From the NCBI GenBank assembly GCA_947624935.1, contig CANQML010000001.1:1-54534 (forward strand): a DNA stretch of 54,534 nucleotides, written 5' to 3'. Positions 1 through 36,726 of this stretch are shown here, in pieces (position 1 is the stretch's first letter; every line of letters begins with the position of its first letter). Source of the stretch: Candidatus Gastranaerophilales bacterium (GTDB taxonomy: Bacteria; Cyanobacteriota; Vampirovibrionia; Gastranaerophilales; Gastranaerophilaceae). The notes below the pieces were generated by a model, which saw only the letters and a program-made list of their open reading frames with translations, had not been told where the DNA came from and searched no databases. A program made the translations under genes and the position numbers.

Positions 1-77
1 ACCTATTTATGTTTATTGACAACGGGGCGGCAACGTTCCGTGAACAAACAAATTCTCTCGATAGGGTTGTACAAGTT
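1..77. repeat. 77-bp terminal overlap identical to 54458..54534 (circular-contig signature or terminal redundancy)
   Basis: The first and last 77 nt match exactly when compared directly. Confidence 0.95.
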
Positions 78-2602: not shown

Positions 2603-3163
2603 ATGCTTATGAAATTGAAAGTTAAGTTTAGGCTCTTTCAAATTTCTACTTATGCGTTAGTTTTTGCGGCAATTATCTTAATGGCTTTATTGACGGGCAA
2701 ATACATTGAAACAGTAGGGCTGTTTATAAGTTTTGTTGCGTTAAGATATACTTTTAGTAAAACATACCACTCTAACTCATTTTGGACGTGTATAGCTATA
2801 AGTATAATTATATTTATAATTGCAATACTATTTGTACCGAAAATCAATTTAAGCATACTTGCTTGTATTGTATTCGGTTTACTTATAGATTTTATTGCTT
2901 ATAAATATAAAGACTATCAAGATAATAAAGCCGAGCTAAAAGAACTAACAAAGCCTAAACCGTTTTCGGTAGATACTTGTACTGAAAATGAGCTTATAGC
3001 GCGTTGTAAAGAGTTAAGATTATCCGAAGAAAATACTAATCTTGCTGTTGAGTTTTTTATTAAAAAGACCAAGCCAAGTATAATAGCAAATAAGCTATGT
3101 ATAGATGAAAAATCCGTACAGCGAAAGAAAACACGCTTAAAAGCAAAACTTAATAACAAATAA
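2603..3163 (+). CDS. membrane-anchored protein with C-terminal HTH (sigma70 region-4 / LuxR-like)
   Basis: The N-terminal ~100 aa is hydrophobic (3-4 TM). The C-terminus NELIARCKELRLSEENTNLAVEFFIKKTKPSIIANKLCIDEKSVQRKKTRLKAKL looks like an HTH. Confidence 0.4.
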   Translation: MLMKLKVKFRLFQISTYALVFAAIILMALLTGKYIETVGLFISFVALRYTFSKTYHSNSFWTCIAISIIIFIIAILFVPKINLSILACIVFGLLIDFIAYKYKDYQDNKAELKELTKPKPFSVDTCTENELIARCKELRLSEENTNLAVEFFIKKTKPSIIANKLCIDEKSVQRKKTRLKAKLNNK

Positions 3164-12503: not shown

Positions 12504-12577
12504 AGAGGTGTAGCTCAATGGTAGAGCGCGCGGCTTTGACCCGTGATATGTAAGTTCAATTCTTGCCGCCTCTGCCA
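12504..12577 (+). tRNA. tRNA-Gln (anticodon UUG), CCA encoded
   Basis: Hand-folded cloverleaf. Acceptor AGAGGUG/CGCCUCU, D arm GCUC-AAUGGUA-GAGC, anticodon arm CGCGG-CUUUGAC-CCGUG, T arm GUAAG-UUCAAUU-CUUGC, discriminator G. Confidence 0.85.
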
Positions 12578-12739: not shown

Positions 12740-12815
12740 GCTTCAATAGCTCAATCGGCAGAGCAATCGCCTTGTAAGCGATAGGTTGCAAGTTCAAATC
12801 TTGCTTGAAGCTCCA
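12740..12815 (+). tRNA. tRNA-Thr (anticodon UGU), CCA encoded
   Basis: Hand-folded cloverleaf. Acceptor GCUUCAA/UUGAAGC, D arm GCUC-AAUCGGCA-GAGC, anticodon arm AUCGC-CUUGUAA-GCGAU, T arm GCAAG-UUCAAAU-CUUGC. Confidence 0.85.
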
Positions 12816-12871: not shown

Positions 12872-12968
12872 AAAAGGGTAAAAAGCAGGACAGTAGGTAG
12901 CTCCTATTGCCGATAATCACCTTATGTCGGCTAACTGCTTTTTTACAAACCATATTATAGGTGTAGTT

Positions 12969-13376
12969 ATGGCTAACAATTTCAAGAAAAAGCAAAAGGA
13001 AGAACGCAAAAAGTTTAGGTCGTGGGAGTGCGAATTTCAAAAAGATAGATACATAAGATTTCCGCACAGCGCATTAACACACGAAAATTTCAAAAGTCTG
13101 TCGGTTTATGCCAAAACTTTGTATATGTATATGAAAGATTGGGCGTATGGTTGCAAAGGTTTTATTGAAAAGCAAGAAAACAACGGCAATGGCGAGTTTG
13201 AGTTTTCAATTAGATTAGCAAAAAGCATATTAAACTGTTCTTTACAAAAAGCAAGTGATACAGTACACGAATTAGAGCAAAAAGGTTTTATAGAAAGACA
13301 AAACAATTCTGCCCGTTCATACCAAACAAGTATATGGCAATTTTCTGATAAGTGGTATAAAGGGGATATGGTATAA
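12969..13376 (+). CDS. winged-helix DNA-binding protein (paralogue of 16878..17282)
   Basis: Shares YxRxxxxxL...LSxxAxxLYxxMKxxAxG...ELxxKGFIE...YxFSxxW with the 16878 product. ATG 12969 lies after a structured leader. Confidence 0.5.
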   Translation: MANNFKKKQKEERKKFRSWECEFQKDRYIRFPHSALTHENFKSLSVYAKTLYMYMKDWAYGCKGFIEKQENNGNGEFEFSIRLAKSILNCSLQKASDTVHELEQKGFIERQNNSARSYQTSIWQFSDKWYKGDMV

Positions 13377-17881: not shown

Positions 17882-18166
17882 TTATTTATCATACTTAAAT
17901 GTGAAATAAGCAATAGCTTGTGGGCAATTATACATTTTCATATAATCTTTATCGTCATACCGCTTTGTGCCAACAAGATATGTATGCCAATCTATGCGCT
18001 TGTCATAGTCGTAATAGCTAAAAACTAAATCTTCTCTCGCAAAAGCGTTTTCGTGATAATCTACAAGGAAGTCTAAAAAATCTTCCATTGTATTAAATTC
18101 CTTTGATTGTGATAATGCCTCGTCCAATGACATCATTGACCCAGCGGGTCTGTAAATAATTTTCAT
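17882..18166 (-). CDS. hypothetical protein
   Basis: Last gene of the leftward operon. Confidence 0.5.
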   Translation of the reverse strand: MKIIYRPAGSMMSLDEALSQSKEFNTMEDFLDFLVDYHENAFAREDLVFSYYDYDKRIDWHTYLVGTKRYDDKDYMKMYNCPQAIAYFTFKYDK

Positions 18167-18182
18167 AATTTAATTCTCCTTA

Positions 18183-18860
18183 TTAACTTTTTTCTTCTAA
18201 AATCTTCCGCAACTTACTTGCAGTAACCTCACATTCTCGTTCTTGATTATCAAATTTTATTTTTATCTTAAACGGGTATTCAGAAGAAATTTTTGTAATG
18301 GTTGCCTTTCTTTCTTGAACAAGCATTACCAACAAATCATCTACACATATAACACGCTCACCAACGGAAAACTCTTTTGCTATTCGACTATCTCTTTCTG
18401 TATCGCATAACTTTTCCAAAAGTCGCGCAATCGGAGTTGTTCCACCGTAATGATTAGTTTCGTTTGCATAGTTTTCAAACACAACAAAGTCATCATCTGT
18501 AAGTTTAGACATAAAATCTTTAACGGCGGTACAAAACTGTTCTCTAACTTTGTCTTTTTTCTCGACCACCTCTTTAACCTTTTCCGCAACCGCATTTTTC
18601 AATTCATTACATACAGCTTCCGCCGACAAAAAGCAATTCAATCTGCACTCTACGTCGTCTTTTTCTCTAATTTCATTACCGTGATAATATATTTCTTCAT
18701 AATAGCGTTTAATATTTTTTTCTGTGCAATCAATAGAGCCTTTTGCTTTTCGTGCAAGGTCGTTTGAAAAATTTTCAACGTGGTCTATATAACCACCTGC
18801 GTTATATTCGTTGTAAAATGTTTTCCCGCAAATCGGGCATTGCATAATTGTATATTTCAT
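18183..18860 (-). CDS. hypothetical protein with N-terminal zinc-ribbon
   Basis: MQCPICGKTF. No family recognised. Confidence 0.5.
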   Translation of the reverse strand: MKYTIMQCPICGKTFYNEYNAGGYIDHVENFSNDLARKAKGSIDCTEKNIKRYYEEIYYHGNEIREKDDVECRLNCFLSAEAVCNELKNAVAEKVKEVVEKKDKVREQFCTAVKDFMSKLTDDDFVVFENYANETNHYGGTTPIARLLEKLCDTERDSRIAKEFSVGERVICVDDLLVMLVQERKATITKISSEYPFKIKIKFDNQERECEVTASKLRKILEEKS

Positions 18861-18862
18861 TT

Positions 18863-19294
18863 TTAATTCTCCTTTTCCTTTTCTATTTTTTCTTTTAGCT
18901 TAAAAACATATTGTCTTGATACACCAAAACGCTTTGCAATAGAACTCATAGTTTCGTTTGTAAAGCTCATTTGCCTAATCGCTTGAATTATATCGCTTGT
19001 TTGTTTACTTCGCGTTCTTGGGCGTTTTATACCGCTTAAAGCTATCTTTACAGTTGTTGCCGAGCATTTATATTTATTTTTCAAGTAATCAATATCTGTA
19101 AAGCCGTTAAGACAGTCCTCACGGATTTTATCAAAGTCAATTCTATGATTGCTTGCTTTGTGTATTCCGCTACCGCTAATCACTTGATTAACATAAACAT
19201 AAGGCACTCCTAAAAGAATAGCTATCTCTTTTGCCGTATGCGTTTTATAAAGCATTAAGATTGATTGCTTTTGCTCGTAAGTGATAAGTGCCAT
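18863..19294 (-). CDS. DNA-binding protein with two HTH motifs
   Basis: TAKEIAILLGVPYVYVNQVIS and TMSSIAKRFGVSRQYVFKLKEK. ATG 19294 (MALITY) is preferred. Confidence 0.5.
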   Translation of the reverse strand: MALITYEQKQSILMLYKTHTAKEIAILLGVPYVYVNQVISGSGIHKASNHRIDFDKIREDCLNGFTDIDYLKNKYKCSATTVKIALSGIKRPRTRSKQTSDIIQAIRQMSFTNETMSSIAKRFGVSRQYVFKLKEKIEKEKEN

Positions 19295-19893
19295 TATTTC
19301 TCTCTCCTTGTAAGCGTTCCGCATAGCGCACAATAAATTTGACCTGTCCGAATTTCGTCGCCATTTTTTATCTGTTTAGCGCAACTTTTTACCCAATTAT
19401 ATGCTAATGGGTTTTGTGCGGCTTCGGTTATCTTCTCTTTCGCTATTCTTTTGTTTTCTTCCGTCAATTCGGGGAGCAATTTCCAACCAAGCTCACTTAT
19501 ACCTTGTTTACAATCATTTTCCGTTGGGAACACATAACACTCCTTATGTATTGCTCCGATAATAGTATGTATTTCCCCTATTTGTATTAGCTTGTATGAA
19601 ATAGAATACTTATTTATGTTTACTTTTGTAATTTTACAAGGTACAGGTAAATAGCCTAAATAGCTATAACTCATTCTGCCTATCGCGTAAACAGTATCTC
19701 CAACTTTGTATTTTGGGACAAGTCCACCGCGCTCCGATTTTAGCCAAGTTGTAATACAAGCAATACAGTTTTTGTATTCTTGACATCTTTTATATCCAAC
19801 CATACACAAATCGTCAATATTTTCCCCGCCTCTTTTTATCACCCAAGCCAGCTCGTTATCTGTTAAAGTCATAAGATATTCTCTTCCTGTCAT
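19294..19893 (-). CDS. hypothetical protein
   Basis: GAGGTG RBS before ATG 19893 (MTGREY). Confidence 0.5.
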   Translation of the reverse strand: MTGREYLMTLTDNELAWVIKRGGENIDDLCMVGYKRCQEYKNCIACITTWLKSERGGLVPKYKVGDTVYAIGRMSYSYLGYLPVPCKITKVNINKYSISYKLIQIGEIHTIIGAIHKECYVFPTENDCKQGISELGWKLLPELTEENKRIAKEKITEAAQNPLAYNWVKSCAKQIKNGDEIRTGQIYCALCGTLTRREK

Positions 19894-19901
19894 ATTACAC
19901 C

Positions 19902-20330
19902 TCAATTCTGTTTTAATTCCGCAATAACATTTTCAATATTCCACTCTTTGCGAAGTTTCAAATTCCGTTTTGCTTTGTTTGCTTTATCTTTGCCGTGAAA
20001 TTGAAAATCCCTAACGAACGGAACACCGATAGTCAAAAGCAGGTCCTCTGCCGTCCAAAGTGCGCCCTCAATGCACTTCAAATCGTCCTCGCATAATGCT
20101 CTGTCTTTATATTCATACTCTCCTTCTAAAAATCGAACGCCTAAATCTCCGTCTATGGAAATGCCTTCCTCGTCAACGGATATAACGGCATAAACTTTCG
20201 TATAATACCCCTCTAAAATGCGAATAGAATAAATTGCACAGTCATAATCTCTATCGCACTTCTCCCAGCCTGTTTTTGTTAAATAATCAAAAATTTTATT
20301 ATCAAATGCTGTTCTATCGCTGAATTTCAT
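19902..20330 (-). CDS. hypothetical protein
   Basis: Operon context only. Confidence 0.5.
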   Translation of the reverse strand: MKFSDRTAFDNKIFDYLTKTGWEKCDRDYDCAIYSIRILEGYYTKVYAVISVDEEGISIDGDLGVRFLEGEYEYKDRALCEDDLKCIEGALWTAEDLLLTIGVPFVRDFQFHGKDKANKAKRNLKLRKEWNIENVIAELKQN

Positions 20331-20344
20331 ATTTATATCCTCAC

Positions 20345-20662
20345 TTATAGATATTTCTGTAATCTTGTGCGGAAATCAATCGGCTCATTGTCGTATTTGA
20401 CATATATATGCTCGTCATTGTGTAAACCGTCAATGCTAACCCAATTAAAACCTTTTAATTCCGTTACAAGCCAATGTGCCTCTTTCATAATCGCTCCGAG
20501 CGCAACGGCAGGGACAACCCAGCCGTCATATTGATTGCCCATAAAATCAATACATTTTTCTCTCTTGATATTCTTCTTGAAAAAAGCGTATGCTTTGCTT
20601 TTCGGCTCAATATCCATACCAAAAGTTATTCCGTCAAAATATTCTGCGTGTAATTCTTTCAT
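20345..20662 (-). CDS. hypothetical protein
   Basis: ATGA overlap with the upstream gene. Confidence 0.5.
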   Translation of the reverse strand: MKELHAEYFDGITFGMDIEPKSKAYAFFKKNIKREKCIDFMGNQYDGWVVPAVALGAIMKEAHWLVTELKGFNWVSIDGLHNDEHIYVKYDNEPIDFRTRLQKYL

Positions 20663-20838
20663 ACATTATGTTCCTTTACTGTCTTTTCAATAAATTCAAG
20701 TGTTTCCTTAAAAGCAACTTCTCGCCCAGCAAAATAATCGTCATACTTTTTATATTTGCCGTAAACTGAATTATTATGTGCTTTGCTAATCGATATAAGT
20801 AGCCAATCTTTAATTTCCTTTACTATATCATTTTCCAT
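20659..20838 (-). CDS. small protein (59 aa), not in ORF track
   Basis: MENDIVKEIKDWLLISISKAHNNSVYGKYKKYDDYFAGREVAFKETLEFIEKTVKEHNV*. Confidence 0.45.
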   Translation of the reverse strand: MENDIVKEIKDWLLISISKAHNNSVYGKYKKYDDYFAGREVAFKETLEFIEKTVKEHNV

Positions 20839-20840
20839 AA

Positions 20841-21416
20841 TTACCTATTCTCCTTTAATATTCTTGATACAGTAGAGGGTGATATTCCTAACTCTACCGC
20901 TATTTCTTTACCCATTTTACCTTGTGAAGATAAATCTAAAACTCTATCTGATAAGGCTTTGCTTTTGTTTGGTCTGCCGAGAATTATGCCCTCGTCCTTT
21001 TTCGCGGCAAGAGCTTGCCTTGTACGGTCTGCTATCAAGTCGCGCTCGAATTGTGCAAATGCACTCATAATATGGAATACAAGCGCAGACATAGCGTCCA
21101 TTTTATTATCACCGCCTACTGTTAGGTTTTCCTTTAAGAATATAACCTTTACTTTTTTATCTCTAACAAGCAAGTTAGTTGTATCTATCAAGTCTTGTAC
21201 ACTTCTTGCCATACGGCTCATACTTTCAAAATACACCTCATCACCCGCTTGCAAGACTTCAAGCAAGTTATTAAATTCTTCTCTTATACAAGCCTTTTTA
21301 GTTCCGCTTATTTTTTCCTCAAACAGTCTGTCAAGCTGATAATCTTTCAAAACATATTCTTGCCTTGTGTATTCCTGTTTGTCGGCTACGGACACTCTTA
21401 TATAGCCGTATCTCAT
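20841..21416 (-). CDS. small serine recombinase (resolvase/invertase family) with C-terminal HTH
   Basis: MRYGYIRVS (catalytic Ser), ...SRMARS..., ...FAQFERDLIADRTRQAL..., and C-terminal GKEIAVELGISPSTVSRIL. ATGA overlap with the upstream gene. Confidence 0.9.
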   Translation of the reverse strand: MRYGYIRVSVADKQEYTRQEYVLKDYQLDRLFEEKISGTKKACIREEFNNLLEVLQAGDEVYFESMSRMARSVQDLIDTTNLLVRDKKVKVIFLKENLTVGGDNKMDAMSALVFHIMSAFAQFERDLIADRTRQALAAKKDEGIILGRPNKSKALSDRVLDLSSQGKMGKEIAVELGISPSTVSRILKENR

Positions 21417-21883
21417 TTTAATATCTCCCATACTTTATTTGTTTTGAAATCTATTAAATAATCCCTGTTATTTTCGGCTGTTCTTGTTTTTGCAAGTTTT
21501 TTGTTTGCCACATTATGCCACCAAAAATAATCGCCATAACCTTGCCACCGTAACGATATAAAATCATTAGTCAATCGGTCAAAAAAGTTAAACTCCCAAA
21601 ACAAATCATTTGCCCATTTTTCATATCTTGCAAAACCCATAAACATTTTCTTTTGAGTTGGCAAAACATAAAATTCTTCTTTTGATTTACCTTTCCCCCT
21701 TGTGCCGTAGAGTTTAAGCTCATTAAGATTGGGCAGTATAATACCATAAACATTATTAAGTGTTTTTTGTAAATCAACATAGTTATACCAGCAATACAAA
21801 TCAATTTCTTTTTCTGTTTGCCCCATTACTTTTGCAGAATATCTGCCAAGTAGTTTGCGTACATATATAAGTTCATATCTCAT
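21413..21883 (-). CDS. hypothetical Trp/Tyr-rich protein
   Basis: Operon context only. Confidence 0.5.
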   Translation of the reverse strand: MRYELIYVRKLLGRYSAKVMGQTEKEIDLYCWYNYVDLQKTLNNVYGIILPNLNELKLYGTRGKGKSKEEFYVLPTQKKMFMGFARYEKWANDLFWEFNFFDRLTNDFISLRWQGYGDYFWWHNVANKKLAKTRTAENNRDYLIDFKTNKVWEILK

Positions 21884-21888
21884 AGTTA

Positions 21889-22068
21889 TTACTCCTTGTC
21901 CTCTTTTTTCAAGATTTCTCGCGTTGTAGTTTGTAAAAGTTGTCTCCCTCGATAATACTCATTGTCGCAATATGAACTTTTGCCGTCATTTTTGTGCCTT
22001 ATGTCATTATCAAGCATACCTGTTATTTGAAAAATATTTAACAATCGCTCTAATAATTCTTTTTCCAT
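21889..22068 (-). CDS. small hypothetical protein (59 aa)
   Basis: GAGGA RBS before ATG 22068 (MEKELL). Confidence 0.4.
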   Translation of the reverse strand: MEKELLERLLNIFQITGMLDNDIRHKNDGKSSYCDNEYYRGRQLLQTTTREILKKEDKE

Positions 22069-22070
22069 AG

Positions 22071-22310
22071 TTAATAATCCTCGTCGTTCCTCTCTTTTTT
22101 TATTTTTTGTCCGCAAAAGGGACAATAACTAAACGGTACGCTTACTGGTGTATCACCCATTGCAGATATAAGAGGTGGATATGCATAAAAGTCTATCGCC
22201 AATCCGCCCCGTGTTCCTTGAAATCTGTGATAGCCACTATGGGCAGAACAAATTTGTTTTATATCTTCCTCTATATCTTCTTCTGTGTAATAAGTGTAAT
22301 CATCTATCAT
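22071..22310 (-). CDS. hypothetical protein with C-terminal zinc-ribbon-like CPFCG
   Basis: AAGGAG lies 8 nt upstream of ATG 22310 (MIDDYTYY). Confidence 0.5.
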   Translation of the reverse strand: MIDDYTYYTEEDIEEDIKQICSAHSGYHRFQGTRGGLAIDFYAYPPLISAMGDTPVSVPFSYCPFCGQKIKKERNDEDY

Positions 22311-22323
22311 AATCTTTACTCCT

Positions 22324-23367
22324 TTATTTATCATATTTTCCTGTTATACAGTTAAGAATTTCTCTATCGCTAATATTCGCGCATTGACAACGGAAAAGTG
22401 TTGTTGAGTTCGGCAATTTAATATAGCTATCGCCCTTGCCTAAAAGTTCCGCACCCTTGCCGCAGTCAATAACGTTCATTGAGTGCCTTGCGTTTGCCGT
22501 AGTCAAGCAAACCTTTGTAGGCAGATTATATTTAATCAAGCCTGTTACAACGCTTGCTCGCGGGTCTTGCGTTGCCACAATAAGGTGTATGCCCGCCGCT
22601 CTACCCTTTTGTGCTATCCTCACGATATATTCCTCTACTTCGTTTTTAGAGGTCATCATAAGGTCGGCTAACTCGTCTATAACAACCACAATTCTATTGC
22701 CGTCATACTTCTTTAACCCTTTTGCTTGCATTTCACCATACCGCCGTTCCATTTCGTCAACGGCGATAGAAAGCCACTCTAACGCCTCGCTATTATCTTT
22801 TGCAACCTTATATATGCGTTTGTGTATATCTTGCTCATACAAGCCAAATTCCGCGCCTTGTTTAGGGTCTATTAAAATTAAACTCGCAGTTGAAAAACAT
22901 AACAGCTCCATAATAAGACTGTTTAGCAAACAAGATTTACCACTTCCTGTTGACCCCGCTATAAGTAAGTGTGCCGCTTCGTCCATATTTGTAACAATAA
23001 AATCGAAGTTACCTTTGCCGAAAGAAATATAGCCTTTTTGCCTTGCCGCTTGTTCGCCGTCTTTATCTTCGGCAATAGCTTTTTTAATAGCGTGTGCGCA
23101 ATCACCGCACGATATAAATTGCCTGTCGCAGTTACGCGATAATCGGAAAGTGCCGCCCTCTAACGGCTCATAGTTATAGCCAGCAAAAACGCGCATTTCC
23201 TTTATCACTCTATTAAACGCAGAAAGGGATACGGCAGAAATGATTTTAAACTCAAAATTTCCCGCTTGCGGTGAAAAGTAACAGCGTAATAATTCAACTT
23301 GTATTCCCGCCCTTGCAAAATAGTTAGTCAAATTTACGCTCATTTGCTCTATTGTTATATCGCCCAT
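22324..23367 (-). CDS. FtsK/SpoIIIE-family DNA translocase ATPase (motor domain only, no TM)
   Basis: Walker A GSTGSGKS, Walker B VVVIDELADLM, and IVATQDPR. Confidence 0.85.
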   Translation of the reverse strand: MGDITIEQMSVNLTNYFARAGIQVELLRCYFSPQAGNFEFKIISAVSLSAFNRVIKEMRVFAGYNYEPLEGGTFRLSRNCDRQFISCGDCAHAIKKAIAEDKDGEQAARQKGYISFGKGNFDFIVTNMDEAAHLLIAGSTGSGKSCLLNSLIMELLCFSTASLILIDPKQGAEFGLYEQDIHKRIYKVAKDNSEALEWLSIAVDEMERRYGEMQAKGLKKYDGNRIVVVIDELADLMMTSKNEVEEYIVRIAQKGRAAGIHLIVATQDPRASVVTGLIKYNLPTKVCLTTANARHSMNVIDCGKGAELLGKGDSYIKLPNSTTLFRCQCANISDREILNCITGKYDK

Positions 23368-23369
23368 AG

Positions 23370-23726
23370 TTATGCCCTCTTCCCCGTTGCGCTATCTTTA
23401 TTAGCTTGTTCTATAAGCTCGGCAAGCCTTGCACTCGCCCTTTTGCCCCAATCGCTGTTAAGCCCTTTGGCAAGAATATCAATATGTGCAGAAACATATT
23501 CCTTGCAAGCGGAAAAGGTTACAAATCCGCCCGCACCTACTCCCGCGCCTGTGCTTGCTTCTGTTGCTTGCCAATAGCCGTGCTGTTTCCTATAAAAGAC
23601 AACAATTATATTGCCGTCTTTATCTTTATGTTCCATCCTATGCCCCATAACAGGTCTTGCATAAAAAGTATCTGTATTTTCCAATTCATCAAATGTGTGC
23701 ATACACTCATAATATAACTTATTCAT
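23370..23726 (-). CDS. hypothetical protein
   Basis: Operon context only. Confidence 0.5.
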   Translation of the reverse strand: MNKLYYECMHTFDELENTDTFYARPVMGHRMEHKDKDGNIIVVFYRKQHGYWQATEASTGAGVGAGGFVTFSACKEYVSAHIDILAKGLNSDWGKRASARLAELIEQANKDSATGKRA

Positions 23727-23738
23727 AGTTATGCCCTC

Positions 23739-24053
23739 TCAATAAATAATACAACCCTCTATATAGTTTGATTTTATGCCTTTGTCTTTATCGCAGAATA
23801 TCAACGGCTCATCGACAATCTTTATAAAAACATTGTTTGCCTTGCCTACTCCCCAAAGTAATCGCTTGTCCGTCATAAAGGTTTTGCCGTGTTCTGTTTT
23901 CCAAACAAAATGTTTATGTGTTACCTTTACGCAGTCCACCTTGCTTGCAAAAACAGTTAGCCCGCTTCCGCTATTACAAACATAGCAATACTTTTTGTCG
24001 GTGTTTATCCACTCATAGTTGCGTTTAAAGTCGTTCCAAATTCTAATATACAC
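23739..24053 (-). CDS. hypothetical protein (GTG start)
   Basis: AAGGGGG RBS. Confidence 0.45.
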   Translation of the reverse strand: MYIRIWNDFKRNYEWINTDKKYCYVCNSGSGLTVFASKVDCVKVTHKHFVWKTEHGKTFMTDKRLLWGVGKANNVFIKIVDEPLIFCDKDKGIKSNYIEGCIIY

Positions 24054-24065
24054 AGTTATACCCCC

Positions 24066-24287
24066 TTAAATAAATTGCCTTATATACTGTTTATACGGTG
24101 TTTTTGTGCCTGTTGCTTTTACTTCGTCATAAGTCATCAACGCTTTTATTCTGTCAAGCTCGCGCTGTTCCTTTTCGTCTTTGGGCGGAATATAGTTCCC
24201 CAAACCCGCAAAAGCGTTGTGTCGTCTTGCCGTCATTATCTTAAAATCTTTAAATGAAATAGTTAATCTTTGATTATAATTTAACAT
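24066..24287 (-). CDS. hypothetical protein
   Basis: AAGGGGG RBS. Confidence 0.5.
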   Translation of the reverse strand: MLNYNQRLTISFKDFKIMTARRHNAFAGLGNYIPPKDEKEQRELDRIKALMTYDEVKATGTKTPYKQYIRQFI

Positions 24288-24298
24288 AATATACCCCC

Positions 24299-24508
24299 TT
24301 AACCTCTGTAATCAACAATTCTATGTTTGCCGTTTTCTTCTCTTTCAATATCTATTTTTTCGGTAAAAAACTGTGATATAAACCTATGCGCCATCGCATT
24401 TGCGCCGTTGTAATATTCAAGTTCAGCTTGCTCGCCGTGCGTAATTGCTTCAAAGTAAACCTCATCAAGCCATTTTGCAACACGTTCAAAAAGTTCCTGT
24501 TGTTCCAT
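24299..24508 (-). CDS. hypothetical protein
   Basis: Preceded by the repeated AAATAATTTATAAAGAGG module. Confidence 0.5.
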   Translation of the reverse strand: MEQQELFERVAKWLDEVYFEAITHGEQAELEYYNGANAMAHRFISQFFTEKIDIEREENGKHRIVDYRG

Positions 24509-24611
24509 AATTAAACCTCTTTATAAATTATTTATTTAAGCCGTAACGGCTCATTTTTATTGTTGTGATAAAATATACTACCTCGCCCATAAAAGGGCGC
24601 AGAATTGAAAT

Positions 24612-24869
24612 TTAGGCGGTTAGAATTGATTTCAAGCTATCGAAAAAATCAAACAGCGATTTTAATGTTCGTTTGTCGTATGTCGCCGTGCTTGCGTCAT
24701 TCGGACTTTTTGATTTTGCACAATAAATAAGCGAGTGCGGCGCAGGAATATCGAGCATATCACAAAGAATATAAAAATCAAGTTGTTCTAATTCTTCCTT
24801 GCCTTTTGCCCATTGTTTAGCCGCTTCCAATACGGCTTGATTTCTCTTTTCGCATTGCTCAATAGTCAT
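24612..24869 (-). CDS. hypothetical protein
   Basis: Preceded by the repeated AAATAATTTATAAAGAGG module. Confidence 0.5.
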   Translation of the reverse strand: MTIEQCEKRNQAVLEAAKQWAKGKEELEQLDFYILCDMLDIPAPHSLIYCAKSKSPNDASTATYDKRTLKSLFDFFDSLKSILTA

Positions 24870-24957
24870 AAAATACCTCTTTATAAATTATTTTTCCGCT
24901 ATGCGGTGGGGCGGGTAGTGTTTTAGGAGTTTCCCGCTATCGCTCCGAAAAGTGCAG

Positions 24958-25101
24958 TTATGCTCTCCTTAAATATAAATTTTTAACTTTTTCAAACTCT
25001 TCTTGACTTATCGCAGAAAGGGGCAGACCCCCGAACCACAAACGGCAGAAAGACAGAAAGCCACATAAAGTTTTAATATTTGTATGAATATAGAATTGCA
25101 T
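24958..25101 (-). CDS. small hypothetical protein (47 aa)
   Basis: Internal ATG (MQFYIH). The RBS is weak. Confidence 0.3.
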   Translation of the reverse strand: MQFYIHTNIKTLCGFLSFCRLWFGGLPLSAISQEEFEKVKNLYLRRA

Positions 25102-25117
25102 AATTATACACCGCCAT

Positions 25118-25303
25118 TTAAAACCAAACAAAAACCTTTTTACCCGCCTTTTCAAGCTCTTCAACGGTATAAATTTCCCCGTTGATTTTTACGCACTGTT
25201 GCCCCCATTCATCCGAATAAACGCGTCGGTCAATATGCGCGTTGCCTTGCGTGATTGTCGCAAACAGCGGATAACCTGCGCAAAATTCTTTTTCAAGTGT
25301 CAT
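25118..25303 (-). CDS. small hypothetical protein (61 aa)
   Basis: AAGGAG before ATG 25303 (MTLEKEF). Confidence 0.45.
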   Translation of the reverse strand: MTLEKEFCAGYPLFATITQGNAHIDRRVYSDEWGQQCVKINGEIYTVEELEKAGKKVFVWF

Positions 25304-25404
25304 TTTGTTAAATCTCCTTTGCCTGTCATCATCAGTACGGGGCGGCAAACCCCCGCAGACGGGCAGAAAAAGCCCGTTTCGACTGTTTAATTAAATCACC
25401 CCCC

Positions 25405-25527
25405 TTATAAATACAGAAAATCGCCATTTTGCCAAACAATTTGAGAATAGCCGCGCCTTTTTAATCTCAAAATCGTAGAATTAGCGGGATATTGCCACAT
25501 TTTTTTACCTTTTGCGTAATAAGTCAT
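25405..25527 (-). CDS. small hypothetical protein (40 aa), not in ORF track
   Basis: GGAG RBS. MTYYAKGKKMWQYPANSTILRLKRRGYSQIVWQNGDFLYL*. Confidence 0.35.
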   Translation of the reverse strand: MTYYAKGKKMWQYPANSTILRLKRRGYSQIVWQNGDFLYL

Positions 25528-25644
25528 AATAATATACTCCTCTTTATGCGTTTAGTTTTGCCGTGTGCGGTCTTTGGACGCTCTCGGCGGACGCATTAAC
25601 GGCGGGCAAGCCGCCGCCCATCTGCTATAATTTCACCCCCTTTA

Positions 25645-25992
25645 TTATGCTAATGCCCTGTTTATAAGCTCGGCGCGCAATTCCGCAATCTTTTTATTTG
25701 CGCGTTCTTCCGCGCTTTTGTCGGATAAGTGCGCCCAATATTCTGCGATTGCATTTTCCGCTTCCTCTTCGAGGTCGTCATACTTTACGCGCGCGCCCGT
25801 TAAATTCCTATAACCTGTGCAAACACAAACGCCGCCGCCGATGTCGTAAGCGTCCCAATTCCAACCGTAAACGCCTTTGTTATAAGCGTAAGCATTTAAG
25901 CCGCGCAACAGATATTGCGCGCCGCAATAGCCTATTCTAATAACTTGCTTGTTTGTTGTTTCTAACTGTTTGTTTGTCAATTTGATTTTCAT
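25645..25992 (-). CDS. hypothetical protein (115 aa, GC-rich codons)
   Basis: AAGAGGG RBS before ATG 25992 (MKIKLTNKQ). Contains IRIGYCGAQYLL...GVYGWNWDAYD. Confidence 0.5.
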   Translation of the reverse strand: MKIKLTNKQLETTNKQVIRIGYCGAQYLLRGLNAYAYNKGVYGWNWDAYDIGGGVCVCTGYRNLTGARVKYDDLEEEAENAIAEYWAHLSDKSAEERANKKIAELRAELINRALA

Positions 25993-26087
25993 AATAAAAC
26001 CCTCTTTATAATTTATTTGCGGGCGGGCTTGCAACCGCCACCGCCGCATTAACCCCTTGCGGGGCTGCTCTGCGTTACAAATTTATT

Positions 26088-26315: not shown

Positions 26316-26370
26316 CCGCCCCCCGAGTCAAGGTTAATTTGATTATAACACCGCCCGCCCCCCGTGTCAA
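26316..26370 (-). repeat. two copies of TTGAC(A/T)CGGGGGGCGG, 39 bp apart; the distal copy supplies the -35 of the leftward promoter
   Basis: Plus-strand ccgccccccgAgtcaa (26316..26331) and ccgccccccgTgtcaa (26355..26370). Confidence 0.7.
26342..26370 (-). promoter_or_regulatory. consensus promoter TTGACA-17-TATAAT for the leftward operon
   Basis: The reverse complement reads TTGACA cggggggcgggcggtgt TATAAT. Confidence 0.75.
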
Positions 26371-26437: not shown

Positions 26438-26506
26438 ATATAAATATCCTGCGCGCCCGCCCTGCTAACCCTTGCAGGCGTGGAAGGAGCCGCCCCGCGC
26501 CCCCGC

Positions 26507-26640
26507 TTTTTTCTTTTTATTTATTTTTCTTTTTTGTAAATTATTCAAAATTACTTTTTGTAATTTTGTACACTAAATAATTATGTAAATTATTCAATGT
26601 ATTGATATGATTATTTAATGATTTTTGTAAAAAAATAAAG
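26507..26640. other. extremely AT-rich tract (about 13% G+C by hand count) with TTTTGTA half-sites and a 13-bp direct repeat; DNA-unwinding-element candidate
   Basis: TTTTGTA at 26532, 26556, 26564 and 26623. GTAAATTATTCAA at 26536 and 26585. Confidence 0.45.
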
Positions 26641-26720
26641 TAACATATCGCGCCCGCACTCGCTCATTCTGTTTTTTCGTGCTTTTTATCCCGTCTAACC
26701 GATTTATAAAACGTTCATAT

Positions 26721-26891: not shown

Positions 26892-27203
26892 AAGTCTTTA
26901 TCAAGACTTTCATTTTAGTTTATGAGATTATTCGGTAAATCCGAATTATCTCTTTACTCACTTAAACTGACATAAAAGCTATAAAAGATTATCAGTATAT
27001 TGATAATGATAGGTAGTAATCATTTCAAAAACGCCGTTAGAGCTTATAATTAGCGTTCTAACGGGTTTTAGAATAAACTATGGGTAAATACACGGAAAGG
27101 CTAAATAAGGGTTTAGAAAGCAAATAAAAGCCTTTCCGAGAGAGTATAATTTTATTGGTGTTTTAGTGGTAAAATATTTCCTATAAAGATAGAAATAGGA
27201 AAA
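26892..27203 (+). other. run of six stem-loops, including a terminator-like one at 27034..27069
   Basis: Stems at 26892..26909 (7 bp), 26924..26952 (12 bp, 1 mismatch), 26988..27007 (7 bp), 27034..27069 (8 bp then GTTTTA), 27093..27138 (10 bp) and 27177..27202 (8 bp). Confidence 0.55.
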
Positions 27204-27221: not shown

Positions 27222-27405
27222 TTTTGTAGTCTATGGTGTTTACAAAATAGGGGTAAAGTGGCATTTTTGTAGCCTGTACTGTTTACAAAAATTTTGTAAC
27301 CTACTGTGTTTACAAAAAGTATGATTTTGTAGCCGTGTGCGTTTACAAAATTTTTTCTGTGTAATAAAATTTATTTATAATTTTGTAGTTATTTTGTTTA
27401 CAAAA
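27222..27405. repeat. five 25-26-bp palindromic iterons TTTTGTA(G/A)-N8-9-GTTTACAAAA
   Basis: Copies at 27222..27247, 27265..27290, 27292..27317, 27325..27350 and 27381..27405. Confidence 0.85.
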
Positions 27406-27425
27406 TTGATTTAGTATGATATAAT
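27397..27425 (+). promoter_or_regulatory. promoter TTTACA-17-TATAAT whose -35 lies inside iteron 5
   Basis: TTTACA at 27397..27402 and TATAAT at 27420..27425. Confidence 0.55.
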
Positions 27426-27521
27426 GAATATACAGAGCAAGGACAGCCCTATTGCAAGGGGTTTCCGAGCGTTCCTGCGGATTACTTGCTTTGTACATTT
27501 TTGCTTGGGGAACGCAAGTTA

Positions 27522-28067
27522 ATGAAAAAGGTAACGAAATACATAAATGATACGCATAAGCCTGTACCGCTGTATGAGGGTGCGGACGGAGAGAAGTTGT
27601 TTGACGTGCCGCCGAACGGCGGTATGGCGAAGATATTTACGGAAGCGCAGATTAGAAGTCAAACGGCGTATGCAAGTAGAGTACAATACGATTGGAAGTT
27701 TATAAAGTGTATGGAAAATGAGCAAGAGATAATAATTCTGTTAAAAGACGACTTAAAGACTTTTTACGCTTTAACCGTAATGAAACATTTTCTGTTAAAA
27801 GATAGGAATATTTTAGTTAAAAATATAGTTAAGGACGGTAAAGAGCAAACAGTTAAGTTTACCGCTATTGATTTACAAGAGGCTTTGGGGTATAAGACGA
27901 GGCAAGCGGCAAGCAAGCATATTATGAAATTAAAGAGCTTGAATATAGTAAAGGGCATAAAGACAAAAGATTTCGGTTATGTTTTTGCTATTAACCCGAA
28001 TTACTATATGAACGGCACTTCTGTACCGAAAGAGATAAGTGAGTTATTCAACGAGGACAATAAATGA
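27522..28067 (+). CDS. winged-helix DNA-binding protein, putative iteron-binding replication initiator or regulator (RepL-like)
   Basis: wHTH-like LQEALGYKTRQAASKHIMKLKSLNIVKGI. It is the first gene after the iterons. ATG 27522 is preferred to the TTG at 27486. Confidence 0.4.
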   Translation: MKKVTKYINDTHKPVPLYEGADGEKLFDVPPNGGMAKIFTEAQIRSQTAYASRVQYDWKFIKCMENEQEIIILLKDDLKTFYALTVMKHFLLKDRNILVKNIVKDGKEQTVKFTAIDLQEALGYKTRQAASKHIMKLKSLNIVKGIKTKDFGYVFAINPNYYMNGTSVPKEISELFNEDNK

Positions 28068-30668: not shown

Positions 30669-30974
30669 ATGCAAAATATTAAACTTGACGGCTCAACAGG
30701 TTGTTTTATTCACCGCGATAAAGACGGAATACATTTAGAAATGGTTGTAAATGATAATTTGGGGTGTAAAAGCGGTGATTATAAAACTGTAAAGCCCGAA
30801 GATTGTCCTACTCAATACGATTATGTTATAGACATAAGCGAAACTACTTATATAACGCTTGTAAAATGTATGCTGTCATTAGCAACACGCGAAGAATTTA
30901 ACAAAATATTACTTAACCCCGTTGACGGGGCTTGTTGGGAAGTAACCCATAGAAAAACAAACAAAAAGCAATGA
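30669..30974 (+). CDS. hypothetical protein
   Basis: ATGA overlap with terL. Confidence 0.5.
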   Translation: MQNIKLDGSTGCFIHRDKDGIHLEMVVNDNLGCKSGDYKTVKPEDCPTQYDYVIDISETTYITLVKCMLSLATREEFNKILLNPVDGACWEVTHRKTNKKQ

Positions 30975-33013
30975 ATAGTCTTAAAAATATTATTGATAGC
31001 CGATTACAGTTTGTGGCTACTTTTACCGAAAAATCGTATTGTGTTTGTAAAGATTGCGGTAGAGAGTGGAAAACTAAACTTGTAAACGGCGAAAAAGTAT
31101 ATGATTTGAAAGCAAAGTGCGATTGCGGTTGTAAAGAATACCAAAATAGGTATTTAGTTGAAAACAACGAGTTTGTTATTCAAGTCTTACAAGATTTAGC
31201 AAAAGCGTATAAGACGGAAATACACGAATATCTTGCGCCGTCTAATCTGCCCGATAAAGAAAAGCGAATACGCGACCATATAAGAGATATTATGACGAGG
31301 GTTAAGCCTATTGCAGAGGGTAGGCTTGACTACTTTACTAATCAATACACAAAATGGTATAACAAAGGCGTTGCGGAACTTCAAAGAGGCAAAAATAAAA
31401 ACAAGTATAAGAGTAGGAAAGAAATACCTATTGAAGATTTTTCACCCGAAGTAAAACAACAATTAAAAACTTATAAACAGTATGTAGATATTTTCAAAGG
31501 GTTAGTAGAAGATTATACTGCGTTAGTTGCGTTTAGGCACTTTGAAACTTTTTGTTTGTACATAGACAGAATATTCGGTAATGATATTTTTACACCCTCA
31601 ATAAGGCTATTCAAAGGGTTTTATTACTATGCTAACAAAATGGTTTTGGACGGCGATGTCAAGTTTATAGAAAAACAATGTTTTGCTGGCGCGGGCAAGT
31701 CTATAACCGACTGCGCTTTAATCTGTTGGATTTTAGGCATTGATATTAACACGGACGTGCTTAAAATCTTCGGCAATGATGAAAACATACAAAACGCTAT
31801 GGATACCATAACGCAAATAATGTGTTCGCCGTATTACGCAAAGGTATTTCCGTACTTTGAAAAGTTTAACGGCAATAAAAACGATATGTTTTCTAAACTC
31901 AAAGAGGCAAGCGGTGATTTAAAGATAAGCGGTAGTATTAAAACGCTTAATTTAAGGGTTAAGTCAAAAGGTGAGAAAACGGACGGCGTAAGAGCTAAAT
32001 TCTTATTCTTGGACGATATAGACGCAGCTGACGACACCCTCGAAAACTATAAAAAGTCTATTTTCTTATATAGAACAAGGTGGCGCAAAAGAAAATATAA
32101 CGATAATCAGTTTTATATCATTGCAAGCGGAACAACATACCACAGAGAAGATTTTTTATCATTTCTTAAAGAAAAGTTCGGCTCACAGTACGCAACGCCA
32201 TCACCGTTTGAGTTTACTTCAACGGCAAGGACTAACGAGATTACGCCTAACGGACTTTCCGTATTCTGCGTAATTTACGGGCTTGACGAAAACGATAAAT
32301 CGACTTATGAAAAGAAGTTTACAACCCAATCGTTTTTGAACGAACGAAAAGACGATTATCGTACTTTTATGGCTATGACACAACAACAGCCGTTACCGCC
32401 AGAGGGTGCGCCGTTTGATTATGATAATCTTCCTAACCTATACGGCGAAGAGGGAATACCGCACTTGCCCGACCGCTTACAGGAAGTATGCAGAGCTTCC
32501 CTCGACCCTGCAAGAAAAGGTAAAGACTTTAATTCTATGCCTATAATTGTTACAATAAACGGCGAAATGTATTTACAAGATTGTATATTCAATAACGACC
32601 CGCCCGACAAACTTCCTTATCAAATAGTCGATATGATTGAAAAACACCATATTGTAGAGTTAGATATAGAAAACAATACCGATACTACTTTTGATTTGCT
32701 TATTAAGAAAATTCTTAAAGAGCGCGGAATAATGTACTGTAATGTTACTTCGTTTTATAGTTACGAGAAAAAAGACCAAAAAATAAAGAACTATGAAACT
32801 GCAATAAAGAGTATTCATTACCCCGAACGCGATGTGTATTCTCGAAATTCGCCTATGGGGAACTTTATGTATTGGTTTACTAACTATGACTATGAACACC
32901 CGCCCAAACACGACGATAGCGTAGATAGCCTTGCTAACTATTCACAGAGATTTATAATCAATAAGCCTACGGGAGTACAGATAAAAACCTATTCTCGAAG
33001 AAAACATTATTAA
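30971..33013 (+). CDS. terL: terminase large subunit
   Basis: Walker A CFAGAGKS, Walker B KFLFLDDID, nuclease-domain motifs SLDPARKGKD and HDDSVDSLA. 680 aa with an N-terminal Cys cluster. Confidence 0.85.
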   Translation: MNSLKNIIDSRLQFVATFTEKSYCVCKDCGREWKTKLVNGEKVYDLKAKCDCGCKEYQNRYLVENNEFVIQVLQDLAKAYKTEIHEYLAPSNLPDKEKRIRDHIRDIMTRVKPIAEGRLDYFTNQYTKWYNKGVAELQRGKNKNKYKSRKEIPIEDFSPEVKQQLKTYKQYVDIFKGLVEDYTALVAFRHFETFCLYIDRIFGNDIFTPSIRLFKGFYYYANKMVLDGDVKFIEKQCFAGAGKSITDCALICWILGIDINTDVLKIFGNDENIQNAMDTITQIMCSPYYAKVFPYFEKFNGNKNDMFSKLKEASGDLKISGSIKTLNLRVKSKGEKTDGVRAKFLFLDDIDAADDTLENYKKSIFLYRTRWRKRKYNDNQFYIIASGTTYHREDFLSFLKEKFGSQYATPSPFEFTSTARTNEITPNGLSVFCVIYGLDENDKSTYEKKFTTQSFLNERKDDYRTFMAMTQQQPLPPEGAPFDYDNLPNLYGEEGIPHLPDRLQEVCRASLDPARKGKDFNSMPIIVTINGEMYLQDCIFNNDPPDKLPYQIVDMIEKHHIVELDIENNTDTTFDLLIKKILKERGIMYCNVTSFYSYEKKDQKIKNYETAIKSIHYPERDVYSRNSPMGNFMYWFTNYDYEHPPKHDDSVDSLANYSQRFIINKPTGVQIKTYSRRKHY

Positions 33014-34972: not shown

Positions 34973-35836
34973 ATGGCAGTATTTAAGGTACACAAAACAC
35001 AAAATTACACGGTAATGAGCAATTACCATTTAAGGGAAAAGAATATGAGTATGAAAGCAAAAGGCTTATTGTCTGTTATGCTTTCATTACCGCAAGATTG
35101 GGATTATTCTATTAGCGGACTTTGTGCGCTTGGCATAGAAAAGGAAACCGCTATAACCGCTATGCTTAACGAGCTTAAAGAGTTTGGTTATCTTGTAGTG
35201 CAAAAGATTTACCCGAATAAAGAAAACGGCGGTAGGATAGAATATATATATAATATCTACGAACAGCCCCAAAAACAAGAGGGTAAAAAACAAGGGTTAG
35301 AAAATCAAGGGCTTGTAGGTCAAGGGGTTGAAACACAAGGGGTAGAAGATATAGGTCTATATAATAATACTAATAAACAAAATACTAATGAACAAAGTAT
35401 TGATATAAATAATATATATATAAACGGGACAAGCAATAACCTTTTATCAGTCAATGAAGTTTTGGAATTAGCTAAAACTCATTGCCGAGTGCTTTATGAC
35501 AGATTTCAACGCAAGATAGACGAGAAAGGACAAGTCCATTTATATGACACTTTACAAAATGTTTTAGACGAGATAGGTAGGTATTACACTATTGAGCAAT
35601 TAAAAGAGCTGTTTATAAAGGCAAGTAAACTGTATTGTTCTACTCCAAACTATTCTAATCTTGACTTACTATGGCTGTTAAACAACTTGAAAAAGATAGA
35701 GGACACGCCTATTAGGGAAGGTACAAGCGGTGGCGATAATTCCCCCTCAAAGTTTACTGAAACTAAAACAGCAGAGGAGTTGGAATACGAAAAGCAATTA
35801 TACGAAAAGTTAAGTAGAGTAGGGAGAGTTGACTAA
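34973..35836 (+). CDS. replication initiator/organizer with N-terminal winged helix (RepA_N / DnaD-like)
   Basis: NYTVMSNYHLREKNMSMKAKGLLSVMLSLPQDWDYSISGL...LNELKEFGYLVV. Directly upstream of the helicase-loader-like ATPase. Confidence 0.55.
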   Translation: MAVFKVHKTQNYTVMSNYHLREKNMSMKAKGLLSVMLSLPQDWDYSISGLCALGIEKETAITAMLNELKEFGYLVVQKIYPNKENGGRIEYIYNIYEQPQKQEGKKQGLENQGLVGQGVETQGVEDIGLYNNTNKQNTNEQSIDINNIYINGTSNNLLSVNEVLELAKTHCRVLYDRFQRKIDEKGQVHLYDTLQNVLDEIGRYYTIEQLKELFIKASKLYCSTPNYSNLDLLWLLNNLKKIEDTPIREGTSGGDNSPSKFTETKTAEELEYEKQLYEKLSRVGRVD

Positions 35837-36726
35837 TGGAATACAGCTTAATTGATTTGATAAAGAAAGGGTTTACTAAAATCACCGCTGACGAAAGAGA
35901 ATATTACCTCACTCACTATATATCAACGGAAGAAAAGCAAATAGGCAAACCGATTTTTGAAATGACGAAAGAGGAAGAACTTGAATACGATAGGCTTTGC
36001 TTTAACAATAAAGCGGGAAACCTAAAAGGCTATGATTGCCCGATATGCAAGAATAAGGGCGAGATTATGGTGGTAAAGGACGGAATAGCCTATTACCCCG
36101 ACTGTTCTTGTATGAAAATCCGTAGGTCGCTTGCGAATATGGAAAATAGCGGGCTTGGCAATTTACTTAACATTTACACCTTTGACAAGTATAAATGCAC
36201 TTACGATTGGCAAAAACACGCTTATGAAAGAGCAAAAGCGTTTATTACAAGCGATAGCAATTTCTTTACAATGGCAGGGCAGTCGGGGACAGGCAAGACT
36301 ATGTTATGTACAGCGGTTGCAGGAGCTTTGTTAAAACAAGGCATAGAGCTTAAATATATGCTTTGGCTTGACGAGAGCATAAAGATAAAACAAGTGGTAA
36401 ACGACAATAAGCAATACGGGAGTATGATTGAAGAACTAAAAAATATACCTGCGCTTTATATAGACGATTTTTTGAAAACCGAAAAGGGCGGTGCGCCTAC
36501 TTCCGCTGATATACGGCTTGCTAATGAGATTATAAATTATCGCTATAACAAGTGTAGAGCCGATAAATCGCAAAGGCACATAACGATTATAAGCACAGAG
36601 TGGTTATTACCGCAATTAAACGAATTTGATAATGCGCTTGCGGGGCGAATATATGAATTATCAAAACCCGATTTCTTTATACAGATAACGGGAGCGGAAA
36701 AGAATTATAGGTTGAAAGATTTTTAA
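35836..36726 (+). CDS. DnaC/IstB-like AAA+ ATPase (helicase loader) with N-terminal Cys4 zinc finger
   Basis: Walker A GQSGTGKT, Walker B LYIDDF, and CPICKN...CSC. Confidence 0.75.
   Translation: MEYSLIDLIKKGFTKITADEREYYLTHYISTEEKQIGKPIFEMTKEEELEYDRLCFNNKAGNLKGYDCPICKNKGEIMVVKDGIAYYPDCSCMKIRRSLANMENSGLGNLLNIYTFDKYKCTYDWQKHAYERAKAFITSDSNFFTMAGQSGTGKTMLCTAVAGALLKQGIELKYMLWLDESIKIKQVVNDNKQYGSMIEELKNIPALYIDDFLKTEKGGAPTSADIRLANEIINYRYNKCRADKSQRHITIISTEWLLPQLNEFDNALAGRIYELSKPDFFIQITGAEKNYRLKDF

Follow-up and report, generated by a model that had tools for sequence, protein, structure and literature searches.

Within the 54,534-nucleotide stretch of contig CANQML010000001.1 analysed here (hereafter the window), which represents the genome of a tailed phage, five copies of a 25- to 26-bp inverted repeat are located directly upstream of a gene for a small winged-helix protein, and the last copy runs into the promoter of that gene. 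This locus, at positions 27222-28067, raises the question of whether the repeats and the protein constitute a replication origin with its initiator, an operator array with its repressor, a partition site or a packaging site. Quite possibly, the locus consists of a RepL-type initiator gene and its cognate, autoregulated five-site array, which together would provide the phage with a second replicon. Judging from the sequence comparisons described below, we give this interpretation about an even chance of being correct.

The array occupies positions 27222-27405, and a pattern search of the window verified that all five sites are located on the forward strand in one orientation. Sites 1 to 4 each measure 26 bp and follow the pattern TTTTGTAR-N8-GTTTACAAAA. 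Site 1 (TTTTGTAGTCTATGGTGTTTACAAAA; 27222-27247) has inverted arms of 7-10 bp, site 2 (TTTTGTAGCCTGTACTGTTTACAAAA; 27265-27290) is abutted by site 3 (TTTTGTAACCTACTGTGTTTACAAAA; 27292-27317), and the right arm of site 4 (TTTTGTAGCCGTGTGCGTTTACAAAA; 27325-27350) doubles as the -35 element of a weaker promoter-like match at 27342-27370. Site 5 (TTTTGTAGTTATTTTGTTTACAAAA; 27381-27405) is one base shorter (25 bp) and overlaps a -35 hexamer. The inverted ends of every site are TTTTGTA and TACAAAA, with their centres 19 bp apart. An earlier interpretation of this DNA, made from its letters alone (the sequence-only reading), had described five 25-26 bp sites with inverted ends, and this description was confirmed by the pattern search and by shuffling; the spacer, which it had given as N8-9, is in fact N8 in four sites and N7 in site 5. 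When the window was shuffled with its dinucleotides preserved, the strict site pattern was expected 0.00 times. A loose pattern, TTTGTA-N9-14-TACAAA, was observed five times as against 0.21 expected, every match being within the array. Neither strand of the 54.5 kb window had a further copy of the site outside the array. Since the site is unique in the genome, the protein would have one target locus rather than being a regulator of multiple promoters.

The start-to-start spacing of the sites amounts to 43/27/33/56 bp, with inter-site gaps of 22/6/12/35 nt. Between sites 4 and 5 lies a spacer of 30 bp (27351-27380) with an A+T content of 90%, which is a candidate unwinding element. A second A+T-rich block (83% A+T), at 26500-26645 and thus ~600 bp upstream of the array, carries on the forward strand four TTTTGTA half-sites and one TTATGTA variant in a single orientation. 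It is conserved in the related loci L003 and L004, which are without the five-site array, yet keep a truncated winged-helix gene of the window type. This block may serve as an accessory binding or unwinding region, the half-sites being a slight pointer to a link with the protein.

A promoter scan identified the promoter of the winged-helix gene at 27397-27425 on the forward strand (TTTACA-17 nt-TATAAT, preceded by a TG and matching at 11 of 12 positions). Its -35 hexamer, at 27397-27402, is part of the right arm of site 5, just as the sequence-only reading had proposed for the last site and the gene starting at 27522. The promoter and the gene are separated by a 90-nt leader, which includes a structured element of 57 nt (27435-27491, forward strand) where an invariant 7-bp outer stem encloses two hairpins. 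This structure was evaluated in six homologous leaders, namely those at window positions 27435-27491 and in the related loci L020 (876-935), L021 (1-60), L022 (1-63), L024 (93-155) and L025 (14-73). In this alignment, 95% of the cells were paired, compared to 31-52% with slid partners. In addition, four pairs had changed on both sides, and none of 500 shuffles attained as high a covariation score. The z-score of the single leader sequence was -1.67, and the leader did not match any Rfam family. Conservation of the structure in six related sequences represents moderate evidence, and we read the leader as a putative second level at which synthesis of the protein is controlled. An additional small hairpin is located immediately upstream of the start codon, where one would look for the ribosome-binding site. 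In one sample, two metagenome contigs both start exactly at the leader's first conserved base, which indicates that assemblies break at the array.

The gene itself (27522-28067, forward strand) encodes a protein of 181 amino acids (aa), which was analysed by structure prediction with AlphaFold2, by hhalign and with local profile hidden Markov models (HMMs). Using a 45-sequence alignment as input, AlphaFold2 predicted an N-terminal four-stranded beta unit, a helix, a winged helix-turn-helix (wHTH; residues 67-157) and a C-terminal helix, at a predicted local distance difference test (pLDDT) score of 92.9; a single-sequence model reached a pLDDT of 38 only. The small size and the single central wHTH, which is also reflected in wHTH Pfam matches of family members, are as in RepL proteins. 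The family is rare: a search of all 1.84 billion representatives with its profile returned 79 relatives at E ≤ 0.001. It is essentially absent from PHROGs, where no match for the window protein was found, and the window protein did not match any Pfam family directly either.

Direct matches to the Pfam RepL family (PF05732) were obtained for 11 of 45 family members, with a best E-value of 1.1e-6. To compare whole profiles, we used genes annotated as 'replication/maintenance protein RepL' from eight plasmids, representing six phyla or classes. An hhalign comparison of the 45-sequence family profile with these eight plasmid RepL proteins gave a probability of 98.3% at an E-value of 1.6e-14 over 124 columns, spanning residues 17-178, with an identity of ~19% over the aligned columns. 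Conversely, the family HMM recognised the RepL of a Clostridium baratii plasmid with 42.5 bits and that of Staphylococcus aureus with 33.2 bits, both near full length, and a third plasmid RepL with 26.5 bits. Two further wHTH proteins encoded by the phage, which served as negative controls, reached 1-5% against the family profile in hhalign. This showed that the match to RepL is not a generic helix-turn-helix (HTH) effect. The sequence-only reading had likened the wHTH to RepL/RepA_N-type initiators; the RepL part of that proposal is upheld by these scores, whereas no similarity to RepA_N was found. By the measure of profile similarity, the window protein represents a distant branch within the plasmid RepL family (PF05732). 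The motifs of the family comprise D-x-x-T-G-E near the N-terminus, F-x-K, an N-x-L segment, the HTH and N-P-x-Y-x-x-x-G. No alignment column in the phage family holds a Tyr or His residue conserved in at least 60% of the members, which makes covalent nicking of the HUH or Rep_trans kind unlikely. Most likely, the predicted RepL-like protein acts by binding DNA.

To determine whether array and gene are maintained together, we compared related loci. Searches with the protein profile, TerL and the leader motif as queries added no further relatives from IMG/VR, JGI metagenomes or GTDB genomes, and the comparative set is therefore small. In L001 and L002, where the protein is 99% identical, the array is kept with three base changes in the stretch; in L001 the A of window site 3 is G, which is the consensus base. 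The more distant L020, with a protein of 60% identity, also has five sites, which follow an altered consensus, TTTGTAAAG-N7-CTTTACA. Its inter-site gaps of 22/6/12/38 nt compare with 22/6/12/35 nt in the window, while the sequences in these gaps are unrelated. Here, too, the fifth site is shortened, its right arm constitutes the -35 element of a TTTACA-17-TATACT promoter, and the spacer between sites 4 and 5 is 87% A+T (90% in the window). Moreover, L024 has the unit of site 5 and promoter as in the window (TTTACA-17-TATAAT). That the geometry is kept without the spacer sequence argues for one defined nucleoprotein complex.

Loci L003 and L004 are informative in another way. Here, the upstream hub is conserved up to approximately window position 27150. 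Beyond this point, different repeats, of the TGCATAAAA and ATTCATAAA types, and a paralogue of 25% identity occur in place of the array, promoter, leader and first 56 codons of the window. What is left of the window-type gene in these loci, its C-terminal two thirds, is either truncated and follows as a second gene or is fused to a T5orf172 nuclease domain. Joint replacement of this kind implies that sites and protein are exchanged as one cassette. The truncated copy in L004 (P0004; 6001-6372) encodes 123 aa, is 81% identical to the window protein without its N-terminal beta unit, and is located behind the paralogue with its own sites; it is probably a remnant of cassette replacement through recombination inside the gene. 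The fusion in L003 (P0002; 6001-6744) joins a RepL-like winged helix to a T5orf172/MUG113 nuclease domain of the GIY-YIG type, and in L022 (640-1362) a nuclease domain of this kind directly follows the RepL-like gene. These instances suggest that the module for DNA recognition has been put to further use in directing a nuclease. Seven other relatives (P0010, P0017, P0028, P0030, P0038, P0041 and P0048) have an uncharacterised extension of ~100-130 residues at the N-terminus.

From the overlap of site 5 with the promoter, the homology to RepL, the conserved architecture and the co-replacement of sites and gene, we infer binding, repression and origin firing as follows. Dimers of the protein would bind each 25-26 bp site via the winged helix, with TTTTGTA and TACAAAA as half-sites, and five bound dimers in fixed geometry would form one nucleoprotein complex. 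Occupancy of site 5 would mask the -35 hexamer and switch off the protein's own promoter, resulting in autoregulation and hence in dosage control. The complex would then destabilise the 90% A+T spacer, or recruit host replication proteins there, so that DNA synthesis could start. The structured leader would offer a second, post-transcriptional control point.

An exact direct overlap of 77 nt between the ends of the window (1-77 = 54458-54534) indicates a circular assembly with a unit length of ~54,457 bp, and the last open reading frame (ORF), which starts at 53314, runs across the circular junction. The complete circular genome claimed in the sequence-only reading is in agreement with this overlap. 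The element stems from rabbit gut metagenomes and is known solely from unit-length (54-57 kb) gut metagenome contigs, with unit-length circular contigs in at least eight assemblies. Its leftward genes extend from 17882 to 26049 and its rightward genes from 27522 onward, through the junction, to ~17800. There is a single divergent hub without genes, and the array is situated at its right edge, ~850 bp from a leftward consensus promoter at 26342-26370. A GC skew minimum at 26-27 kb coincides with the switch in gene orientation and was not counted as independent evidence for an origin. Pfam scans, which covered all ORFs of ~115 aa or more, identified TerL (30971-33013), an SPP1-type portal, an E-type capsid protein, two DNA methylases, ERF, Gp157 and SSB. 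They also identified, on the reverse strand, a 196-aa resolvase (20841-21431) and an FtsK/SpoIIIE-like ATPase (22324-23367), and among these ORFs there was no tyrosine or large serine integrase, all of which had been correctly anticipated. No ParA, ParB, toxin-antitoxin domain or XRE-type repressor was detected in the same scans.

A canonical origin is located at 35.3 kb. Five 15 bp iterons of the CAAGGG type (35271-35347) are followed by an AT-rich stretch, and this entire origin (35271-35440) lies inside the low-complexity linker of an HTH_36 organiser gene (34973-35836; 287 aa). The gene for an IstB/DnaC-like loader (35836-36726) comes directly after the organiser gene.

Several observations weigh against an initiator role of the RepL-like protein. 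The presence of the canonical origin at 35.3 kb, which the sequence-only reading had missed, means that the RepL-like unit would be a second replicon, not needed as the sole origin. The window protein itself gave no match to Pfam RepL (PF05732) at E-values of up to 10, and the four inspected PF05732 matches of family members scored 17-18.7 bits, compared to a gathering threshold of 20.3, and involved profile positions 70-128 only. A Foldseek search with the 27522 product, which the sequence-only reading had advised as a check, produced no initiator among its PDB matches, but only generic winged-helix regulators (SmtB, MarR, TubR and CodY) at E ≥ 0.009; likewise, a sequence search of solved structures gave weak wHTH matches only, and no Rep structure was among the fold or sequence matches in the PDB. 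The sites are palindromic, like operators, and irregularly spaced, unlike tandem iterons. The label 'iteron array', under which they had been described before, is thus not appropriate in the classical sense of tandem direct repeats. Within the hub, there were no DnaA boxes (allowing up to one mismatch) and no enrichment of them. The relative P0080 (24% identity) is encoded beside a tyrosine integrase, and the room upstream of its gene is too small for an array. In addition, the mechanism of RepL proteins is poorly characterised (PMC5703833). Lastly, the RepL-like gene heads an operon that continues into methylase, terminase and structural genes, a position that would suit a transcriptional regulator.

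This position is one element of the idea that the protein is purely a transcriptional autoregulator or switch, with a RepL-derived fold and no initiator role, which would bind cooperatively to five operators and repress or time the promoter of the rightward operon. We regard this as a possible, if on balance unlikely, explanation. It would account for the location of site 5 over the -35 hexamer and of site 4 over the second promoter-like match, for the palindromic nature of the sites, which is typical of dimeric repressors, for the fact that repressors are the closest structures, and for the presence of a complete canonical replication module elsewhere in the genome. What it fits less well is that the homology to RepL is full-length, extending beyond the HTH to the N-terminal beta unit and the NP-x-x-x-x-G motif. 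Moreover, five sites with rigid, conserved gaps over 185 bp go far beyond the needs of simple autorepression and have the format of origins and centromeres, and the site has no other copy in the genome. With the leftward promoter ~850 bp away, a bidirectional switch of the CI/Cro type is impossible. An immunity switch of that type was also rejected because the array serves the rightward promoter only and the fold is a winged helix, not XRE (HTH_3).

Type II and type III partition loci are typically laid out with repeat arrays over the promoter of the binding protein's own gene, and the array could accordingly be a centromere-like partition site for segregation of an episome, with the protein as a self-repressing winged-helix adaptor in the style of TubR/tubC or ParR/parC. 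The presence of TubR among the fold matches, the genome without an integrase and the NCBI name of the RepL family, 'replication/maintenance', are in line with this idea. Nonetheless, we consider it improbable, since the Pfam scans revealed no ParA, ParM or TubZ-type nucleoside triphosphatase beside the gene or in the genome, and RepL is the sole protein of plasmids of 1.3-1.5 kb, where it must serve replication (PMC6789725). Moreover, generic ArsR and MarR proteins matched at least as well as TubR did. Small terminase subunits often have winged-helix domains and repeated sites as well, and the gene shares an operon with the large terminase gene (30971-33013), 3 kb upstream of it. Even so, we judge it highly improbable that the array is a pac packaging region and the protein a terminase-associated DNA-recognition subunit: eight other genes, including one for a methylase, separate the gene from terL, and an ORF of 101 aa that overlaps the terL start is a better candidate for the small subunit. 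Furthermore, the homology is to RepL and not to terminase small subunits, and the promoter overlap with its autoregulatory layout would be left unexplained. Readings as a pac site or as a late activator were both rejected, based on the occurrence of the site at a single locus and on the homology to RepL. An initiator with its cognate array remains our preferred interpretation.

If the locus is indeed a RepL-type replicon, this would bear on the lifestyle of the phage, for which the sequence-only reading had proposed a phage-plasmid, with a strictly lytic phage that has an iteron origin as an equal alternative. Only the missing integrase, the resolvase and the circular contigs speak for such a lifestyle, and neither partition genes nor host copies were found; we consider it doubtful. 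A check for the element in host assemblies, which had likewise been proposed, covered 185,579 species with one genome per species and gave no relative of TerL, and DNA and protein searches of 72,556 plasmid records and 50,697 phage records gave no match. A fuller version, to which we assign a slightly lower probability still, would be a two-replicon phage-plasmid of a gut Firmicute, which is kept as a dosage-controlled, RepL-type low-copy episome with multimers resolved by the resolvase, uses the 35.3 kb origin for lytic replication, and has the late genes of its 45 kb operon repressed by the RepL-like protein. A gene for an AgrB-like membrane protein is present at 2603-3163 (PF04647, E 4.8e-12), a hint that the host may be a Firmicute and that the phage might interfere with peptide quorum sensing.

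Other features of the genome were noted in passing. The strand of the leftward operon carries two ribozyme matches above the Rfam gathering thresholds: a type II hammerhead ribozyme at 25317-25384 (reverse strand, 53.2 bits) and a type-P5 twister ribozyme at 26023-26074 (reverse strand, 51.2 bits), the latter at the very start of the operon. Genes for tRNA-Gln (TTG; 12504-12577) and tRNA-Thr (TGT; 12740-12815) adjoin a borderline RepA_N-like gene of 150 aa at 12924-13376, which scored 30.5 bits against a cut-off of 30.

RepL proteins are among the least understood plasmid initiators, and their binding sites and control circuit have remained undefined. The lineage described here provides a comparative definition of the target of a RepL-like protein, with five palindromic sites in fixed geometry, promoter occlusion and a covarying leader RNA, and it could become a tractable model for the way in which RepL-type proteins recognise DNA and limit their dosage. 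The phage also joins crAssphage as a second, independent case in which a gut phage without an integrase has a RepL-like gene leading a strand block, and this bears on the frequency of episomal or carrier-state lifestyles among gut phages. Should the cassette replicate alone, it would represent a compact new replicon for gut Firmicutes.

The closest known counterparts of the protein are the plasmid RepL proteins of the pSN2 family and of other PF05732 plasmids (such as S. aureus ermC plasmids, pSRD77 and pLA6_12), which share with it a length of 140-185 aa, the D-x-x-T-G-E beta hairpin, the central wHTH and the NP-x-x-x-x-G motif. They have been described as HTH proteins of ~18 kDa whose control is unstudied (PMC5703833), and autonomous replication with a solitary repL module has been demonstrated, in Roseobacter, for pLA6_12 only (PMC6789725). 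In three of four plasmids that we examined, repeats are located directly upstream of repL: pSRD77, which has repL as its only gene, carries two of 22 bp, a Bacillus plasmid carries three of 22 bp that end 21 bp before the repL start codon, and the C. baratii plasmid has several repeats beside the repL start. The fourth, an S. aureus ermC plasmid, has no such array by the start of repL. Compared to these plasmids of 1-7 kb, the window unit is part of a 54.5 kb tailed phage, has five palindromic sites of 25-26 bp instead of two to three tandem repeats of 22 bp, and includes a structured leader.

The closest formal analogue of five initiator sites that contain the initiator's promoter is oriR/incC of phage P1, where five such sites are located just upstream of the initiator gene with the promoter -35 and -10 elements inside them (NC_005856 annotation). 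Both phages would have more than one replicon, the second in the window phage being a predicted one. P1 RepA, however, is a different kind of initiator and has direct repeats of 19 bp at a regular spacing of ~21 bp; P1 also possesses DnaA boxes, Dam sites, a second array (incA) and parAB, none of which were found in the window phage. More generally, iteron theta replicons, such as those of P1 RepA, F RepE and pPS10 RepA, have sites over the initiator promoter, as have the window, L020 and L024. They differ in their tandem, helically phased repeats of 17-22 bp, an arrangement that the window array lacks, and in having two winged-helix domains (the Rep_3 fold), compared to one wHTH plus a beta unit in the window model.

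The lytic second replicon of P1, with RepL and oriL, invites comparison with the window unit, given the shared name and its being phage-borne. Nevertheless, P1 RepL (L026, 5727-6572) was rejected as a relative, with hhalign values of 7% against plasmid RepL and 6% against the window family, which involved the HTH only. An AT-rich element is essential for the action of P1 RepL (PMC9948254). Unlike the window array, which is located upstream of its gene, P1 oriL lies inside repL. The name that the two kinds of RepL share is misleading, and at least one recent preprint equates them. The design of lambda O-type origins, which are situated inside the initiator gene, does occur in the window genome, at another locus (35271-35440) and in another protein family (HTH_36).

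In crAssphage (Carjivirus communis), repL heads the plus-strand block with a predicted origin just upstream, and a phage-plasmid lifestyle has been argued for it (preprint PMC10983915). Like the window phage, crAssphage is a gut phage without an integrase in which repL comes first in a strand block, a likeness of gene position. The two differ in phage lineage and host phylum, and the crAssphage origin is likewise a predicted one. Set beside these systems, the overall design of the window locus is already known, while the protein family, itself uncatalogued, the site architecture and the leader are new instances of it.

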